Source of the DNA: Bacilli bacterium
Lineage (GTDB): Bacteria; Bacillota_I; Bacilli_A; RF39; UBA660
Direction of reading: 5' to 3'
Assembly (NCBI GenBank): GCA_017416535.1
Contig: JAFQCG010000003.1
Span: 132,911 to 196,910 of the forward strand
DNA length: 64,000 nucleotides
Shown: piece after piece, positions 2,683 through 9,141 of the stretch
How positions within the stretch are numbered: the first letter of the stretch is position 1
Layout of the letters: each line of letters opens with the position of its first letter
Position numbers and translations under genes: made by a program
The notes under the pieces: generated by a model
Database searches by the model: none
Told to the model about the DNA's origin: nothing
What the model saw: the letters and a program-made list of their open reading frames with translations, nothing else

Positions 2683-4044
2683 ATGTTAAACAAAATATTT
2701 AAGTTAAAACAAAATAAAACAACTGTTGCGACTGAACTACTAGCAGGATTAACTACATTTATGGCAATGTCTTATATCATTTTTATTAATCCTGCGATTC
2801 TATCAGAAACAGGTATGGATTATAATTCTGTTTATGTTGCGACAATACTTGCATCAATGATAGGAACATTTCTTTTAGGAGTAATTGCAAATGTTCCATA
2901 TGTTCAAAGTGCAGGTCTAGGACTTAATGCATTATTTACATATACAATATGTGGTGCTATGGGCTTTACATGGCAACAAGCTCTTGCAATGGTTTTCATA
3001 TGTGGTGTAATAAATGTATTAATAACTCTAACTAGTGTAAGAAAGAAAGTAATTAAAGCAATTCCGTCGTTTATGCAAGATGCAATAACAGTTGGAATTG
3101 GTTTGTTTATTACCTATATAGGAGTAAAAAGTGCAGGATTAATTGAATTTTCTGTATCTCTAGTAAATAATGGAATAGCCGCTGCTGCAGATGTTGTACC
3201 ACAACTTGCAACATTCTCTACAAAAGATATAATCCTTGCAGTAATAGGTATAGTAATAACTGCTATTCTTGTTTCCAAAAAAGTAAAAAATTCATACTTA
3301 CTATCAATAGTAATAACAACAATAATTGGTTTATTTATGGGAGTTGTTGATTTACCAAACTTTTCAAATTATTCATTTATCCCATCAATAAAACCTACAT
3401 TCTTACAATTAGATTTCCAAGGATTATTTACAGCAAAAGCTGGAATAATTGTAGTAATTATGACAATATTTACATTAGTAATATCTGATTTATTTGATAC
3501 AATTGGAACGTTTATTGGTACTGGTAAAGAATCAGGAATATTTAAAATAGATGATGACGGAAACATGCCAAAAAATTTAGAAAGGGCTCTTATCTGTGAT
3601 TCATCAACTACGATAGTTGGATCTCTTCTAGGTACAAGTAATGTAACAACATATGTAGAAAGTAGTGTAGGAATAGAAGCAGGAGGAAGAACTGGACTAA
3701 CTGCAGTATCAGCAGCAATCTGTTTTGGTCTATCAATCTTTCTAGCACCAATAGTTGCCTGTGTACCAATGGCAGCAATTGCTCCAATATTAATTTTTGT
3801 AGGATTATCTATGGTAGATAATATTGTAAATATAAATTGGAAAAATACCCTTATGGCAATACCAGCATTCTTTATAATTATAATGATGCCATTATCATAT
3901 TCAATCACAACAGGTATTCAATTTGGATTTATTCTTTATGCAATAGTTAATTTAGTTAATAAAAAAGGAAAAGAAGTATCTCCAATTATTTATATATTTG
4001 TAATATTATTCATAATTGATTTTATATATAAGGCAATAGGTTAA
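2683..4044 (+). CDS. NCS2 family nucleobase permease (AzgA/PbuG-like guanine/hypoxanthine permease)
   Basis: 453 aa. N-terminal LLAGLTTFMAMSYIIFINP and multiple TM segments typical of AzgA/PbuG. Confidence 0.8.
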   Translation: MLNKIFKLKQNKTTVATELLAGLTTFMAMSYIIFINPAILSETGMDYNSVYVATILASMIGTFLLGVIANVPYVQSAGLGLNALFTYTICGAMGFTWQQALAMVFICGVINVLITLTSVRKKVIKAIPSFMQDAITVGIGLFITYIGVKSAGLIEFSVSLVNNGIAAAADVVPQLATFSTKDIILAVIGIVITAILVSKKVKNSYLLSIVITTIIGLFMGVVDLPNFSNYSFIPSIKPTFLQLDFQGLFTAKAGIIVVIMTIFTLVISDLFDTIGTFIGTGKESGIFKIDDDGNMPKNLERALICDSSTTIVGSLLGTSNVTTYVESSVGIEAGGRTGLTAVSAAICFGLSIFLAPIVACVPMAAIAPILIFVGLSMVDNIVNINWKNTLMAIPAFFIIIMMPLSYSITTGIQFGFILYAIVNLVNKKGKEVSPIIYIFVILFIIDFIYKAIG

Positions 4045-4045
4045 A

Positions 4046-4071
4046 AAATATCAAGCAATTGATATTTTTTT
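4046..4071 (+). terminator. Rho-independent terminator
   Basis: aatatcaa-gc-ttgatatt hairpin plus T-run. Confidence 0.6.
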
Positions 4072-4105
4072 ATGTTATAATATCATCACCTTGTGAGGTG
4101 ATGAT

Positions 4106-4759
4106 ATGGAAAAAATAATTGATAATATACATATAAAAAGAATAGGTTATTTTAATTTATATTTAATTAAAGGAATTACCGGAGATATATTAATAGATAC
4201 AGGTTTTATTTGTATGAAGAAAAAAATAAAAAAATGGTTAGATAAACACAATGTAAAATTAATAATTCTAACTCATGCTCATATTGATCATATTTGGAAT
4301 ACAAATTATATTCAAAAAATGTATAATTGTGAAGTTGCTATATCAAAAATAGATATTAAAAATATTGATAATAAAAATATTAAAACAAAACCTCTAAATA
4401 AACTAACTAAATATTGGACTAATTTAATGTCTCTTGGTATGAACAAATTTAAAGCAAAACCATTTAATATTAATTACAAATTAAAAGATAAAGATGAAAT
4501 AAATAAGTATGGAATAAAACTAACAATCTATTCACTACCAGGTCATACCAATGGTTCAGTTGGAATAAAATATAAAAAATATTTATTTGTAGGAGACGCC
4601 CTTGTAAATAGATTTAAAGTAACAAGAGCATATCAAAATCAAAATCCTAAAGAAGCAAAAAGAACTGTCCAAAAAATTAAACACATAAATTCAGATATAA
4701 TATTTTTAGGGCATGATAAATACATTACAAGAGATAAACTTTTAAAAGATTTAAAATAA
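4106..4759 (+). CDS. MBL-fold metallo-hydrolase
   Basis: LTHAHIDH (HxHxDH) metal-binding motif, 217 aa. Confidence 0.7.
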   Translation: MEKIIDNIHIKRIGYFNLYLIKGITGDILIDTGFICMKKKIKKWLDKHNVKLIILTHAHIDHIWNTNYIQKMYNCEVAISKIDIKNIDNKNIKTKPLNKLTKYWTNLMSLGMNKFKAKPFNINYKLKDKDEINKYGIKLTIYSLPGHTNGSVGIKYKKYLFVGDALVNRFKVTRAYQNQNPKEAKRTVQKIKHINSDIIFLGHDKYITRDKLLKDLK

Positions 4760-4815
4760 TTAATTGACAAAAATAAAAAAGAATTATATTCTTAAATCAA
4801 TAAGGAGAGATTAAT

Positions 4816-4875
4816 ATGACTAATTATTCTATTAACTTAAGAAGACGTATACGACGACGCTTGGGTATGAAGTAA
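4816..4875 (+). CDS. putative leader peptide MTNYSINLRRRIRRRLGMK (19 aa)
   Basis: Strong RBS aaggagag 7 nt upstream of the ATG. Six Arg in seven codons, four of them rare CGN codons in an AGA-using genome. Immediately followed by alternative hairpins and a terminator. Confidence 0.35.
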   Translation: MTNYSINLRRRIRRRLGMK

Positions 4876-4885
4876 TAAACTTCAG

Positions 4886-4977
4886 ATACAAGCGTATTTA
4901 TAGTGCTTGTATCGTTATAGAATAATTAATTTAAATATAAATCTATAATCTATGCAAGCACATTGCATAGATTTTTT
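4886..4977 (+). promoter_or_regulatory. putative transcription attenuator (anti-antiterminator / antiterminator / terminator)
   Basis: Hairpin A: atacaagc (4886-4893) with gcttgtat (4905-4912). Terminator: ctatgcaa (4950-4957) with ttgcatag (4963-4970), then T6 (4972-4977). The 3' arm of A (gtgcttgtat) can instead pair with the terminator 5' arm (atgcaagcac), 10 bp with one G-U. Confidence 0.4.
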
Positions 4978-4998
4978 AATTAGAAAGAAGGAGAAACA

Positions 4999-6049
4999 AT
5001 GAAAGACAAAATATTAAATGAAATAGTAAATAATACAATTAAATTAATGAAATATAAAACAATAAAAAATGAATATAATGAATTTGATAAAGCTTATAAC
5101 TTTATAAAAAGTAAATTAGAAAAATACAATATAAATGAATATATTATAAATAATTATAAAAACTTAGTAATAAGTAACACTAATGATAAAAATTTAGATA
5201 TTATTTTCTGCGCTCATCTAGATGTAGTACCTGCAAATAATTATATGCCCCGATGTCTTAGATAACAAAATATATGGCAGAGGTGCAATAGACATGAAAG
5301 GGCAACTTTCAACAATAATATCACTTCTAAAAAACAATAAAACAAAAAAGAAAATAGCATTTATCATTACAAGCGATGAAGAAATAGGAGGTTATTGTTG
5401 TAAAGAAATATTAAAAGATTACACATCTAAATTAGCAGTAATTCCTGATGCATCATCTAATTTTAATTTAGTAGTAGAAGAAAAAGGACTACTACAATTA
5501 GAATTAACATCCTATGGAACAACAGCCCATGCCTCTGAACCTTATAAAGGAGATAATGCTATAATAAAATTAATTAATTTATATAATGAACTATTGAAAA
5601 TATATTCACCACCTACAGAAAAAGAATTTAAAACTACAATAAACTTATCTAAATTAATTGGTGGAGATGCAGTTAATATGGTACCAGGAACTGCAACAAT
5701 GACTTTAGATATAAGATTTGAAAAAAGTGATTCAATAGAATCTATACTAAATAATATAAATAAACTAAAAAAAGATATAAAAGTTAAAGTGTTAGACCAA
5801 GGACCAGTATTTCAAGTAGATGAAAATCTTCAAATCATAAAAGAATTTATAAGCAAGGCAGAATTAATATTAAAACACAAAGTAAAAATAGAAAAATGTG
5901 TCGCTACAAGTGATGCTATATATTTTAGTGAAAAAAATATTCCAACTATTCTTATGAATCCAAAAGGTGATAACTGGCATGGTCCAAATGAATATGTAGA
6001 AATAGAAAGTTTATATACTTTATATGAAATATTTAAGACATTACTATAA
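4999..6049 (+). pseudogene. M20 family peptidase (ArgE/DapE-like deacylase), interrupted by a +1 frameshift at a CCCC run near 5247-5251
   Basis: Frame 1 gives HLDVVPANNYMP then stops. Frame 2 continues PDVLDNKIYGRGAIDMKG (M20 signature). Removing one C restores a single approximately 340-aa ORF. Confidence 0.6.
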
Positions 6050-6079: not shown

Positions 6080-6637
6080 ATGAATTACAAAGATATAAAA
6101 ACAAAAGAACAATTATCTGAATGGATGGACAAAATAACATATGGATATAAAGGTAAAACAAAATATCATACATATGAAGAAAATGATTTTAATGATGTTT
6201 GGTATAATGAGTATTTATTATCAGCACCAAACGATGTAATAAAATCAAAAATAGGTAATTGTTGGGATCAAACAGAATTAGAAAGATATTGGTTTAAATC
6301 AAAAAATTATGAGATAAAAACATTATATGAAATGGTAAAACTACCATATGAAAATCCTTATCCAACACATACGTTCTTAGTTTTTAAAGATAACAATAAA
6401 TGGTACTGGTTTGAAAATGCAGATTTTCAAAATAGAGGAATACATGAATTTAATACCATAGATGATTTAATAAACTATCAACAAGAAAAATACATAGAAT
6501 CATTAAAAACATTTTCGATAAAGGATGAAGAATTAAAAAATATAATTCTAAAAGAATATGAAAAACCTAAATCAAATATAAGTGCAAAAGAGTTTATAGA
6601 ACATGTTATAAACTCTAAAGATTATAAAGGAGAATAA
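6080..6637 (+). CDS. hypothetical protein, possible Cys/His hydrolase
   Basis: 185 aa. Conserved-looking GNCWD ... HTF; no firm family assignment. Confidence 0.35.
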   Translation: MNYKDIKTKEQLSEWMDKITYGYKGKTKYHTYEENDFNDVWYNEYLLSAPNDVIKSKIGNCWDQTELERYWFKSKNYEIKTLYEMVKLPYENPYPTHTFLVFKDNNKWYWFENADFQNRGIHEFNTIDDLINYQQEKYIESLKTFSIKDEELKNIILKEYEKPKSNISAKEFIEHVINSKDYKGE

Positions 6638-6638
6638 T

Positions 6639-7262
6639 ATGGAATTTATAGAAGAAATTAAAATATTAGAAAATACATTTAGAAGCAAAGAAACATATTT
6701 AACATACATAGGAAACACAGATGTACTACTTACTGCAGTACATACAATGGATCAACTAAAAGAAGATGGTACATTTAAATTTGAAGAATTCTATACAAAA
6801 GCAATTGCTAGATATGTTGCGGCAAAAACAGATTCATCTTATTTTGTAAAAATAAAAGACACAAATATAGATTCTAATTCACTAGTAACAGATGATTTTA
6901 AAGAACAACTGTTAAACTACATTGAAGAAAATAATATTAAGTTAATTATTGATATCCATGGTGCTAAAGAAGAAAGAGATTTTGATGTTGAACTTGGAAC
7001 ATTAAATAATATTTCTGCTGACTATTCATCAATAAAAGAACTTGAAGATGCATTTAAAGAAGTAGGAATTACTAAAGTACAATATAATAATCCATTTAAA
7101 GGAGGAGGAATTACCCAAACTATATTCGCAAATACCAATATAGATGTAATACAAATAGAAATAAATGGAAAATATCGTAATATTGATGAACCGGAGAAAA
7201 TAGAAAAAATTTGTAAAGCACTTATTAACTTTATAAAAATGTATAATAATATTGTAGACTAA
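6639..7262 (+). CDS. hypothetical protein (possible N-formylglutamate amidohydrolase-fold hydrolase)
   Basis: 207 aa, IDIHGA motif; weak assignment. Confidence 0.3.
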   Translation: MEFIEEIKILENTFRSKETYLTYIGNTDVLLTAVHTMDQLKEDGTFKFEEFYTKAIARYVAAKTDSSYFVKIKDTNIDSNSLVTDDFKEQLLNYIEENNIKLIIDIHGAKEERDFDVELGTLNNISADYSSIKELEDAFKEVGITKVQYNNPFKGGGITQTIFANTNIDVIQIEINGKYRNIDEPEKIEKICKALINFIKMYNNIVD

Positions 7263-7266
7263 TGGA

Positions 7267-8961
7267 GTGATAAAATTGATCCAAGATAAAATAAATAATT
7301 TAAAAATAACTGATACTAAAATAAGAAAAATAATAAAAAATATTGAAGAAAATATTATAAAATTATCAAAAGATACAAATAGAGATAATCAACTTAAAAT
7401 AATAGATATAATTTCAAATGAACGTAATAAATATTTAACATATTATTGGGCAAGTTATATTGGATATTTAAAAAATATAAAAGATGAAAAGTATCTTACA
7501 TCAGAAAAAATAATTGCTAAATACGAAGGTGACTATAATAATGCAGTATATAAGTTTTTTGAAACAATAGATAGTATAAAAGAAAAGGATCATATTATAA
7601 AAGTATATGGTAAACGATTTATAGATTTAGCTCATAATCAAAAACTATTATATTCAAACAGCACAGAACTATTTGAAGAAGAATTATCACTTCGCAAGGA
7701 ATATAGAAAGATACTTAATAATATAAGAATAAATTTTAACAATGAAGAAATATCTCTTGTGAAATTAAATAAATATCTTACAGATGATAATGAACAAATA
7801 AGAAAAGAAGCATATGACAAAAGATATGAAGCATTATTAAAAGTTAGTGATGAATTAGGTAATATATTTATAAAATTACTAAAAGTAAGAAAGAAAATCG
7901 CATTGTCAACTAACTTTAAAAATTATACAGACTATAGTTTTATTAAAATGAATAGAGTAGATTACAAAGAAAATGATTTAAGAATGTTTAAGGATATAAT
8001 TCTAACATTCTTTGTTCCATTAAAAGAAAAACTAAAAGAAACACAAACAAAAAGATTACATGAAAAGAAATTATCATATTATAATGCATCATATTTATTT
8101 AATGATGGAAATGCCAAAACAAAATATAATATTGAAGAAATTTGCAATAAATTAAATGATATATTCAAAAAATTAAATACTGAATTTAGTGAACTATTTA
8201 CAATGATGTTAGAAAATAACTTAATTGATTTAGAAGAAAGAGAAAATAAAAGTGCTGGTGGAATTACAACATTCCTACCAGATTTCCAAGTTCCAGTATT
8301 TATAAAAAGATATATGGATAATTCAAATAATTTTATTGCGATTACTCATGAATTTGGACACTCACTTCAATTATATTTAAATAGGAATAAAACACTTCAT
8401 GAAAACAGATGGCCAACATTTGATATATGTGAAATACATTCAACTACAATGGAATTATTAGTAAGTGATTATACAAATGAAATATATGAAGAAGACTATA
8501 AAAAACATTTAATTACTCACTATACAAATTTAATTGAAATATTAGTAAGAACAGCTGCTGTTGATGATTTTCAAAGTAAAATATATTCAGAAGATAACTT
8601 AACCATCGAAGATGTAAATAATATTTGGAAAGATATATATAAGCAGTATTATCCAACAAATAATTATGATTTAGATTATTTTAAAAAAGGTATTTTATGG
8701 CAAGCAGATATAAATAGAATAGATGATCCATTTTATGGTATAGATTATGCACTTGCGGAAATATATGCTTTATCATTTTATCAAAAGTACTCAAATAATA
8801 AAGAGAAGGGGATTAAAGACTTTATATCATTCTGTAAAGATGGCGGAGAAATATCATTTAAAGAAATATCTAAAAAGTATAATTTATTAAATCCATTTAC
8901 AGAAAAAGACTTAATATCTATAGCAAAATTCTTTGAAGAAAAACTAGAAAAAATTTTATAA
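7267..8961 (+). CDS. pepF: M3B oligoendopeptidase F
   Basis: 564 aa. HEFGHSLQ HEXXH zinc motif in a PepF-like context. Confidence 0.8.
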   Translation: MIKLIQDKINNLKITDTKIRKIIKNIEENIIKLSKDTNRDNQLKIIDIISNERNKYLTYYWASYIGYLKNIKDEKYLTSEKIIAKYEGDYNNAVYKFFETIDSIKEKDHIIKVYGKRFIDLAHNQKLLYSNSTELFEEELSLRKEYRKILNNIRINFNNEEISLVKLNKYLTDDNEQIRKEAYDKRYEALLKVSDELGNIFIKLLKVRKKIALSTNFKNYTDYSFIKMNRVDYKENDLRMFKDIILTFFVPLKEKLKETQTKRLHEKKLSYYNASYLFNDGNAKTKYNIEEICNKLNDIFKKLNTEFSELFTMMLENNLIDLEERENKSAGGITTFLPDFQVPVFIKRYMDNSNNFIAITHEFGHSLQLYLNRNKTLHENRWPTFDICEIHSTTMELLVSDYTNEIYEEDYKKHLITHYTNLIEILVRTAAVDDFQSKIYSEDNLTIEDVNNIWKDIYKQYYPTNNYDLDYFKKGILWQADINRIDDPFYGIDYALAEIYALSFYQKYSNNKEKGIKDFISFCKDGGEISFKEISKKYNLLNPFTEKDLISIAKFFEEKLEKIL

Positions 8962-9017: not shown

Positions 9018-9141
9018 CATGTTGAGAGGGAGTAGTCCTTAAATGTTATAGTACGTCATCGTGGAAATATAAACCCGTATTATAAAAAGTATTAAAAGTT
9101 TGGACGAGACTTTTACATTAATGTAAGAGTCTCGTTTTTTT
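9018..9141 (+). ncRNA. approximately 120-nt structured leader or small RNA ending in a strong intrinsic terminator
   Basis: Promoter directly upstream. Hairpin acgagacttttacattaatgtaagagtctcgt (9104-9135) plus T7. The downstream ORF starts 108 nt later with no obvious second promoter. Confidence 0.3.

Follow-up and report, generated by a model that had tools for sequence, protein, structure and literature searches.

A probable arginine-codon transcription attenuator with two alternative folds upstream of an M20 deacylase gene in uncultured gut Bacilli

The leader region and its arginine codons

The 64,000 nucleotides of DNA from a Bacilli bacterium (contig JAFQCG010000003.1) that were analyzed in this study, hereafter called the window, contain between positions 4760 and 4998 a short leader open reading frame (ORF) with clustered arginine codons and several RNA helices including an intrinsic terminator, followed by a gene of the M20 ArgE/DapE family of deacylases. 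An earlier sequence-only reading of this region had proposed a ribosome-mediated attenuator keyed to arginine, and all features which it listed were found in place or shifted by 1–3 nt. In window coordinates the leader region comprises the following elements; loci of relatives carry labels beginning with L.

4764..4792, + strand: sigma-70-type promoter (TTGACA 4764–4769, spacer of 17 nt, TATTCT 4787–4792; score 10/12)
4802..4809, + strand: Shine-Dalgarno (SD) site of the leader ORF, AAGGAGAG
4816..4878, + strand: leader ORF of 19 codons, MTNYSINLRRRIRRRLGMK (4816–4875, then a second stop codon at 4876–4878)
4840..4848, + strand: arginine cluster 1, AGA AGA CGT, the proposed sensing codons, 18, 15 and 12 nt 5′ of the segment 1 core
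4852..4860, + strand: arginine cluster 2, CGA CGA CGC, clade-specific and overlapping segment 1
4857..4873, + strand: segment 1, 5′ strand of helix H12, located inside the ORF (core CGCUUG 4858–4863)
4879..4895, + strand: segment 2, 3′ strand of H12, of which 4885–4894 doubles as the 5′ arm of hairpin A (H23)
4903..4913, + strand: segment 3, which is either the 3′ arm of hairpin A (4904–4913) or the 5′ strand of the antiterminator H34 (4903–4912)
4947..4977, + strand: intrinsic terminator H45 (4947–4957/4963–4973, 11 bp, loop 4958–4962, T6 at 4972–4977)

The proposed promoter-proximal ORF of 19 codons, equipped with a ribosome binding site (RBS), is present, with both its promoter and its SD site now being located. 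A comparison of upstream regions furthermore revealed that TTGACA is kept at the equivalent position in relatives. Arginine accounts for 2.8% of the codons, and the occurrence of six arginine codons within seven, which had already been noticed, has a chance probability of p ~3e-9 per position. In the long ORFs of the window arginine is encoded by AGA (73%), CGT (19%), CGA (3%) and CGC (1.5%), with CGG at 0%. The claim that four CGN codons of the leader are rare holds for CGA, CGA and CGC, so that three of its six arginine codons are truly rare, but not for CGT. Among the 526 arginine codons of these long ORFs CGG was not used once, and CCC and CCG together account for less than 4% of the proline codons; this host may avoid CGG or leave it unassigned. 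No tRNA genes were found within the 64-kb window.

Two mutually exclusive folds

The leader RNA consists of five segments which form two mutually exclusive folds, H12 + H34 (ON) and H23 + H45 (OFF). Hairpin A is present with 10 bp, the two arms described previously being its 8-bp core, and the terminator followed by six T residues was likewise recovered, with an 11-bp stem. Also the anticipated 10-bp antiterminator pairing between the 3′ arm of hairpin A and the 5′ arm of the terminator exists (H34, 4903–4912 with 4952–4961), one of its pairs being G-U. The layout of three RNA elements was, however, incomplete as it overlooked segment 1 within the ORF. H12 comprises 14 standard pairs over 16 positions (4858–4873) in addition to the pair A4857-U4895, and its loop, AAUAA, contains the leader stop codons. 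In relatives a conserved C[GA]CTTG element, whose window copy lies inside the ORF, is located at or just past the end of the leader ORF and pairs with CAAG[CT]G of the hairpin A 5′ arm. It is segment 1, by means of H12, which would link the position of the ribosome to the choice between the hairpins.

Modeling of the alternative structures by RNA folding, which had been suggested as a check, recovered both folds, and their energies in the window are nearly equal (-27.4 versus -29.7 kcal/mol). The region 4795–4998 folds with z = -5.45 in comparison to dinucleotide shuffles, none of the 200 shuffles folding equally well, and between 4000 and 9500 five terminator-like sites were observed, with 0.7 being expected. 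A tandem repeat of AATCTAT (4940–4946 and 4947–4953) at the terminator 5′ arm, found solely in the clade of the window, provides the 3′ arm with an additional register. An upstream "segment 0" (4834–4840 pairing with 4860–4866), which appeared in the minimum free energy (MFE) structure, was considered as a layer that keeps the leader OFF by default and was rejected due to its lack of conservation, for example in L148.

Conservation of the leader in relatives

Orthologues of the M20 protein were located in 22 species-level genomes and on further contigs, with identities of 45–85%, and the hosts of all of them are uncultured gut "Bacilli/Erysipelotrichaceae/Tenericutes" represented by metagenome-assembled genomes (MAGs). 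A short ORF with an arginine run is found immediately 5′ of the M20 gene in 17 of the 22 genome loci. A covariance model (R1) added four leaders outside its training set (L010, L011, L013 and L016), which are located 5′ of a gene for a GNAT acetyltransferase that precedes the M20 gene. Of the first 26 M20 loci, 24 keep ORF, SD site and arginine run, L018 and L021 being the only ones of these lacking the leader; with three later loci this results in 27 distinct arginine leaders. A search with the covariance model yielded no second copy within the 64-kb window.

Conservation of the peptide is limited to the arginine run, while its other residues vary freely and its length ranges from 11 to 19 amino acids (examples are MNKYSVNRRRRY, MVKYSMNIRRRF, MKYNINNRRRYKLIHL, MIKLIIINRRRRLIHLTLR, MKLFLQNNRRRYR and MKYFIIRRRYN). 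All 23 distinct arginine peptides contain a run of two to four arginine codons, three or four in nearly all of them, and all 23 mix AGR with CGN codons, CGN reaching 53% as opposed to 24% in the ORFs of the window. The codons AGA, CGA, CGC and CGT interchange synonymously among relatives, the run being spelled, for example, AGA AGA CGT, CGA AGA AGA CGC, AGA CGA CGC AGA, CGC AGA CGT or AGA CGA AGA, and insertions and deletions in the N-terminal part of the leader ORFs are multiples of three. The SD-like GGAG 5′ of the leader ATG is conserved in nearly all of the 29 aligned leaders and missing in a few. As the arginine codons are spelled synonymously, mix AGR with CGN and are accompanied by frame-preserving indels, the comparison indicates that selection acts on translated arginine codons and not on an RNA word. 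The arginine-codon runs, whose conservation in homologous loci had been put forward as a check, are hence conserved as codons, with synonymous changes, across the 27 leaders.

An arginine codon directly before the stop codon in L014, L015 and L022 was examined as a possible late regulatory codon. It was rejected, because the codon is part of the RNA motif TACG[AG], and this motif also occurs, untranslated, in L009 and L019.

Covariation and folding of the two structures

Structure counts refer to the 29 aligned leaders (alignment A4) and folding tests to 28 leaders. In the OFF fold 96.7% of the positions are paired and 12 pairs have changed on both sides, and none of 500 shuffles was as good; RNAalifold predicts this fold independently. 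Its two helices contribute 97.9–100% pairing with four double changes (H23) and 95.5% pairing with eight pairs changed on both sides (H45), the terminator of L006 being without a T-run. The ON fold, counted as the H12 core together with H34, is paired to 89%, H34 itself to 84–88%, and the key pair of the H12 core is GC in 14, AU in 11 and GU in four leaders and unpaired in none of the 29. Shifting the pairing partners by 1–3 columns abolishes the signal for the ON and the OFF fold alike. Judged from the alignment, covariation supports each of the four helices, so that the covariation of hairpin arms which the earlier reading had wished to see in homologous loci exists for both alternative folds.

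With segment 1 free and the 3′ arm of the terminator not yet transcribed, H12 and H34 formed in silico in 26 of 28 leaders. When segment 1 was removed, which mimics its coverage by a ribosome, the full-length RNA formed the terminator, again in 26 of 28 leaders. With segment 1 present, the terminator was lost from the full-length MFE structure in 16 of 28.

Geometry, mechanism and polarity

In almost every lineage the codons of the arginine run start 21, 18, 15 and 12 nt 5′ of the segment 1 core. Exceptions from this register are L148, with only two arginine codons there, and four leaders, L011, L013 and L016 among them, in which the run is displaced outward by 2 nt. The stop codon of the leader lies either 1–8 nt 5′ of the core (mostly 6 nt) or 6–15 nt past the start of the core. 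A ribosome shields approximately 9–13 nt beyond the first base of its A-site, as is known from toeprints and from the ribosomal helicase.

If arginyl-tRNA is scarce, a ribosome would stall at cluster 1 (4840–4848), 12–18 nt 5′ of the segment 1 core, and would leave segment 1 outside, so that H12 could form. Segment 3 would then remain free, H34 would sequester the 5′ arm of the terminator and the polymerase would read into the M20 operon. If arginyl-tRNA is plentiful, the ribosome would instead translate across segment 1 until it reaches the stop codon in the loop of H12, segment 2 would pair with segment 3 once this is made, and the terminator would form and end the transcript near 4977. Without any translation the predicted default is read-through. 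It appears quite likely that the leader is in this manner a ribosome-mediated transcription attenuator that reads arginine codons and is ON under arginine limitation. The polarity follows from the spacing of 12–21 nt, which together with the footprint of the ribosome would leave segment 1 free; footprint geometry, kinetics and the ON-under-starvation polarity are all inferred. The direction of regulation had been regarded as not deducible from the sequence; with segment 1 included, ON under arginine limitation can be deduced.

A tandem T-box and a histidine-codon version

Four relatives carry a T-box with an arginine specifier directly 5′ of the leader (L009 4624–4806, L014 4637–4816, L015 3260–3439 and L022 4629–4808). 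These T-boxes score 98–121 bits, their specifier loop reads GAA-CGC/CGU-purine and thereby contains an arginine codon, and their terminator runs straight into the SD site of the leader. An Rfam search of positions 4000–6000 of the window found no T-box. Uncharged tRNA switches a T-box ON, and the leader behind it must be ON with uncharged tRNA-Arg as well, because otherwise the operon would be inexpressible. The tandem arginine T-box also argues for an arginine starvation regulon.

A search of metagenomes with the pattern ATACAAGYG-N5-14-GCTTGTAT matched at least 120 loci, most of them chance matches, and among the pattern matches listed L094, L047 and L137 were the only ones to be confirmed by the covariance model. 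A further candidate, L053 (31.9 bits), was rejected as a copy of the leader, being a plain terminator after a gene. L047 (8870–9023, - strand) and L137 (8394–8559, - strand) exhibit the same scaffold of segments 1–5 with the leader peptides MNTFKFIKMYYHHKIMHLLIRH and MFNYYMVDHHNSLHLFNRH. Their two histidine codons, CAT CAT, are located 15 and 12 nt 5′ of segment 1 and share alignment columns with the arginine codons. The gene 3′ of the L047 scaffold is hisS, encoding histidyl-tRNA synthetase. Orthologues of hisS from other samples (83–93% identity) are preceded by the same leader with HHH (L151–L153 ~1018–1170, L154 ~1036–1175); L047 and L151–L154 represent an abundant human gut lineage. Rfam 15 contains no match for this histidine-codon leader, even at E <= 10. 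The comparison of both versions indicates that the amino acid specificity of the scaffold is set by its codons, and its use before hisS supports the ON polarity of the arginine version.

Weighing of the alternatives

In the clade of the window (the window itself, L002, L004, L023, L024, L026 and L147–L149) the ancestral "...RRR-Y-stop" has been replaced and the ORF runs across segment 1 into the H12 loop. The codons of the clade-specific cluster 2 (CGA CGA CGC) are 6, 3 and 0 nt away from the segment 1 core, and any ribosome stalling at them would have to cover this segment. Their coding for arginine is kept within the clade, including one synonymous change (AGA CGA CGC in L148). Both points would fit the same attenuator with the opposite polarity, in which a stall on or near segment 1 leads to H23 and the terminator and expression requires ample arginine. 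Yet a starved ribosome reaches cluster 1 before cluster 2, the arginine run lies 9–21 nt 5′ of segment 1 in all other lineages, a tandem T-box that is ON with uncharged tRNA would render such an operon inexpressible, and the histidine version controls hisS, which is expected to be induced by histidine limitation. The opposite polarity is consequently regarded as unlikely. The part played by cluster 2 in an attenuator that is ON under arginine limitation can be conjectured: its rare CGA and CGC codons might brake non-starved ribosomes on segment 1 and commit the transcript to termination, and this brake might take over the role which the stop codon has in the short leaders.

A nascent chain that arrests the ribosome itself, either in response to arginine or ornithine, as SpeFL, TnaC or the fungal arginine attenuator peptide (AAP) do, or in response to a macrolide at a +x+ motif, would be another way to arrive at a conserved RRR. 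This sequence indeed matches the R/K-x-R/K stalling motif of antibiotic leaders (PMC8632094), and SpeFL contains a conserved pair of arginine residues (PMC6386406). However, the peptide is not conserved beyond its arginine run and varies in length from 11 to 19 amino acids, the change from RRR to HH(H) at an unchanged register is accompanied by hisS as target, an arginine T-box occurs in tandem, and no resistance gene was found downstream of the leader, all of which makes an arrest peptide very unlikely. Still less can be said for a switch made of RNA only, that is a riboswitch or a protein-binding leader in which the ORF is incidental and AGAAGACG is an RNA element. This word is the most frequent spelling of the run and the helices are strongly conserved, but the run is also spelled AGACGACGCAGA, CGCAGACGT, AGACGAAGA and CGAAGAAGACGT, which have nothing but their coding for arginine in common. 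Moreover, SD site and ATG are kept in nearly every copy (with GGAG missing in a few), indels preserve the frame, no conserved unpaired core resembling a ligand pocket was seen and no Rfam match was obtained, and the probability of this explanation is considered to be minimal. The setting of specificity by codons argues strongly against arrest peptide, antibiotic sensor and RNA-only switch alike. An attenuator keyed to arginine, as originally proposed, is upheld by the conservation of the leader, the covariation, the tandem T-box and the histidine version.

Several points nevertheless weigh against an attenuator that is ON under arginine limitation. Its evidence consists of sequence and comparison, and its hosts are uncultured MAGs. 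Classical attenuation assumes a tight coupling of ribosome and polymerase, which to our knowledge is not established for Bacilli. The full-length MFE structure retains the terminator in spite of a free segment 1 in 12 of 28 relatives, so that read-through there must depend on the kinetics of folding. As the NCBIfam scores of the M20 protein are sub-threshold, its physiological link to arginine rests on the tandem T-box. For this window the mechanism is weakest at cluster 2 (4852–4860), where a stalled ribosome would cover segment 1 and favor termination, the opposite of a stall at cluster 1.

The M20 gene, its candidate frameshift and the operon

The genes behind the leader and the candidate frameshift site are located as follows.

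4999..6049, + strand: M20 ArgE/DapE-family deacylase gene, the proposed target of the regulation (frame 0 4999–5250, frame +1 5252–6049)
5248..5254, + strand: candidate programmed +1 frameshift site CCC_CGA_U (frame 0 stop codon at 5263–5265)
6080..6637, + strand: DUF553/transglutaminase-like gene, operon of the window's clade
6639..7262, + strand: FGase-like amidohydrolase gene, operon of the window's clade
7267..8961, + strand: M3 oligoendopeptidase gene, operon of the window's clade
9102..9137, + strand: strong terminator with a 16-bp stem and a T-run, probably the end of the operon

The assignment of the regulated gene to the M20 ArgE/DapE family was correct with respect to the family, but the gene lies in two frames and requires a +1 frameshift to be read through. 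It is split into two ORFs, 4999–5265 (88 amino acids) and 5294–6049 (251 amino acids), and a +1 shift at ATG CCC|C GAT (5245–5254) joins the frames into a protein of 349 amino acids, which can be aligned over its full length with single-frame orthologues. The break is found at xxx-CCC-CG[AU] in six diverged lineages with variable flanking codons (besides the window L002, which has CCC_CGU, L004, L023, L024/L025, L026 and L150), while the closest single-frame relatives, L147–L149, read ...Y-E-[AP]-... at the position of the shift. A split M20 gene occurs in at least 17 clusters of 251-amino-acid products, and the identical version is present on nine independent contigs. Ratios of dN/dS of 0.12–0.35 for the N-terminal and 0.08–0.18 for the C-terminal part, at pS of 0.21–0.62, place both halves under purifying selection. 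An assembly error or a decaying pseudogene was rejected as cause of the split in view of the nine contigs, at least 17 clusters, six lineages and this purifying selection.

Both codons of the site are among the rarest in the window, CCC accounting for 1.4% of the proline and CGA for 3% of the arginine codons, and no other in-frame CCC-CGN pair occurs in the 17,872 codons of the window. An SD-like stimulator 5′ of CCC_CGA was not seen. Transcriptional slippage is considered unlikely at a run of only four C. CCC_CGA is accordingly presented as a candidate, drawn from sequence, for a programmed +1 frameshift at a hungry arginine codon; alternatively, the M20 enzyme may be made of two separate polypeptides.

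All NCBIfam matches of the M20 protein are below their curated cut-offs and its best relative in the PDB, according to a sequence search, is an uncharacterized M20 peptidase; the identity "ArgE" cannot be claimed for this protein. Synteny of the genes at 6080–8961, which had been described as peptide salvage genes, is limited to the closest clade, and the M20 gene is the only conserved target of the leader. In the clades of L009–L022 the usual neighbor of the M20 gene under the arginine leader, before or after it, is a gene for a GNAT acetyltransferase (for example L014 6067–6612, L013 4274–4972 and L017 6031–6780). The pair of an acetyltransferase and a deacylase recalls ArgA/ArgE, and no other arg genes are adjacent.

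Relation to known systems

Rfam 15, including the families His_leader, Trp_leader, Leu_leader, Thr_leader and Phe_leader, gave no relevant match to the leader of the window at E <= 10, and a search of the literature together with Rfam yielded no arginine-specific attenuator with an intrinsic terminator and nothing on the five-segment scaffold. The leader of the window resembles trpL, hisL, leuL, thrL, pheL and ilvL of E. coli and Salmonella in several respects. A short ORF is translated in which codons for the amino acid to be sensed are clustered, antiterminator and terminator hairpins exclude each other, the first structural gene is preceded by an intrinsic terminator, and the position of the ribosome would decide on the fold. 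Unlike them, the leader of the window would sense arginine and uses five segments and four helices in place of four segments and three helices. Its sensing codons are located 5′ of the first segment, so that a stall is predicted to free this segment and not, as in the trp type, to cover it, and its predicted default without translation is read-through. Furthermore, its hosts are uncultured low-GC Bacilli and its target is a deacylase in place of a recognized biosynthetic operon.

The view that arginine attenuators are essentially undescribed in bacteria is too strong, as two systems, neither of which acts via an intrinsic terminator, come close (speF orf34, PMC6386406; rbfL, PMC13009471). In Salmonella, consecutive arginine codons of the upstream ORF (uORF) orf34, which encodes SpeFL, couple the progress of the ribosome to arginine and select between mRNA structures of speF (PMC6386406). 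The choice between alternative structures by arginine codons in an upstream ORF is shared with the leader of the window, but orf34 operates by Rho-dependent termination, unfolding of the RBS and sensitivity to RNase G and has a conserved peptide domain, whereas the output of the window leader is an intrinsic terminator and its peptide is conserved in the arginine run only. In S. aureus, rare arginine codons in the leader ORF rbfL sense arginine limitation by ribosome pausing (PMC13009471). This system is translational, occluding the RBS of rbf, and represses under arginine limitation, in contrast to the transcription termination and inferred activation under arginine limitation in the window.

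The arginine T-box (RF00230) likewise reads the charging of tRNA-Arg as termination versus antitermination and shares a transcript with the leader in the four relatives described above, but it binds uncharged tRNA directly, needs no translation and was not found at 4000–6000 of the window. The fungal AAP (arg-2/CPA1) resembles the leader of the window as a uORF exerting arginine-dependent control on an arginine-linked gene. It is a conserved peptide which stalls the ribosome in the presence of free arginine and affects both translation and the decay of the mRNA, while in the window codons alone are conserved and the logic would be that of tRNA charging.

Known +1 frameshift sites with a slow codon comprise CUU_AGG_C of Ty1, CUU_UGA_C of prfB and CCC_UGA of a Listeria phage (PMC5009743). 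The anatomy of CCC_CGA matches such sites, in particular those of Ty1 and the Listeria phage (PMC5009743). It differs from them in that the A-site codon is a sense codon for arginine and that the candidate site is located in a chromosomal bacterial gene which is itself under probable arginine control.

The class of mechanism, transcription attenuation by a leader peptide, is classical; its arginine version, which appeared neither in Rfam nor in the literature searched, is widespread in uncultured gut Bacilli. Unusual features are the five segments, the tandem T-box, the codon-swapped histidine paralogues and the frameshifted target.

Biological relevance

Arginine is missing from the textbook leader-peptide attenuators and T-boxes usually do such sensing in this lineage; the locus described here is a well-supported arginine example. 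In some genomes, T-box and arginine leader on one transcript would double-check the same signal. The sensing codons 5′ of the first segment, the predicted read-through default and the histidine paralogues before hisS, taken together, show that substitution of codons can re-aim one RNA chassis, which is of use for studying the evolution of attenuators and for engineering amino acid sensors. The locus furthermore points to an arginine starvation regulon, consisting of the M20 deacylase and often a GNAT acetyltransferase, in abundant uncultured gut bacteria.

A more far-reaching idea, which is possible rather than probable, is that the leader is a codon-programmable scaffold which was changed from arginine to histidine by a swap at -18/-15/-12, and that in the clade of the window arginine is read twice per mRNA, in the leader and at the CCC_CGA frameshift. 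The conserved break at CCC_CGA is a concrete candidate for regulated frameshifting at a hungry codon, which would tie the synthesis of full-length M20 protein to a hungry arginine codon. If this is true, full-length M20 protein would mainly arise under poor charging of tRNA-Arg(ICG), and the gene would represent a natural, regulatory case of starvation-dependent recoding. The idea that such recoding serves regulation has been raised, but not settled, in work on frameshifting (PMC5009743).

Additional elements next to the leader in relatives

In L010 (~495–560), L011 (~4245–4310), L013 (~4195–4260) and L016 (~4190–4255) two extra terminator-like hairpins with T-runs are located before the GNAT gene, which together with the leader's own terminator results in three terminator-like hairpins in series. 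A second tiny ORF between the terminator and the M20 gene is absent from the window and was observed in L003 (~4930–4990), L005 (~3300–3350), L006 (~4940–4990) and L007 (~4930–4985). These ORFs end with ...H-stop, for example MKNKVIKKLLKIIMSIH, MKINFKKLLKIIMSVH, MINFNKLLVILLNTH and MKLMKIINKIFFLVH, and their stop codon overlaps the SD site of the M20 gene. L012 and L017 contain a different second tiny ORF, MNNLVRYNLRFFILRYFV and MKNLMRREVRFLVLRYLVQDY, respectively.

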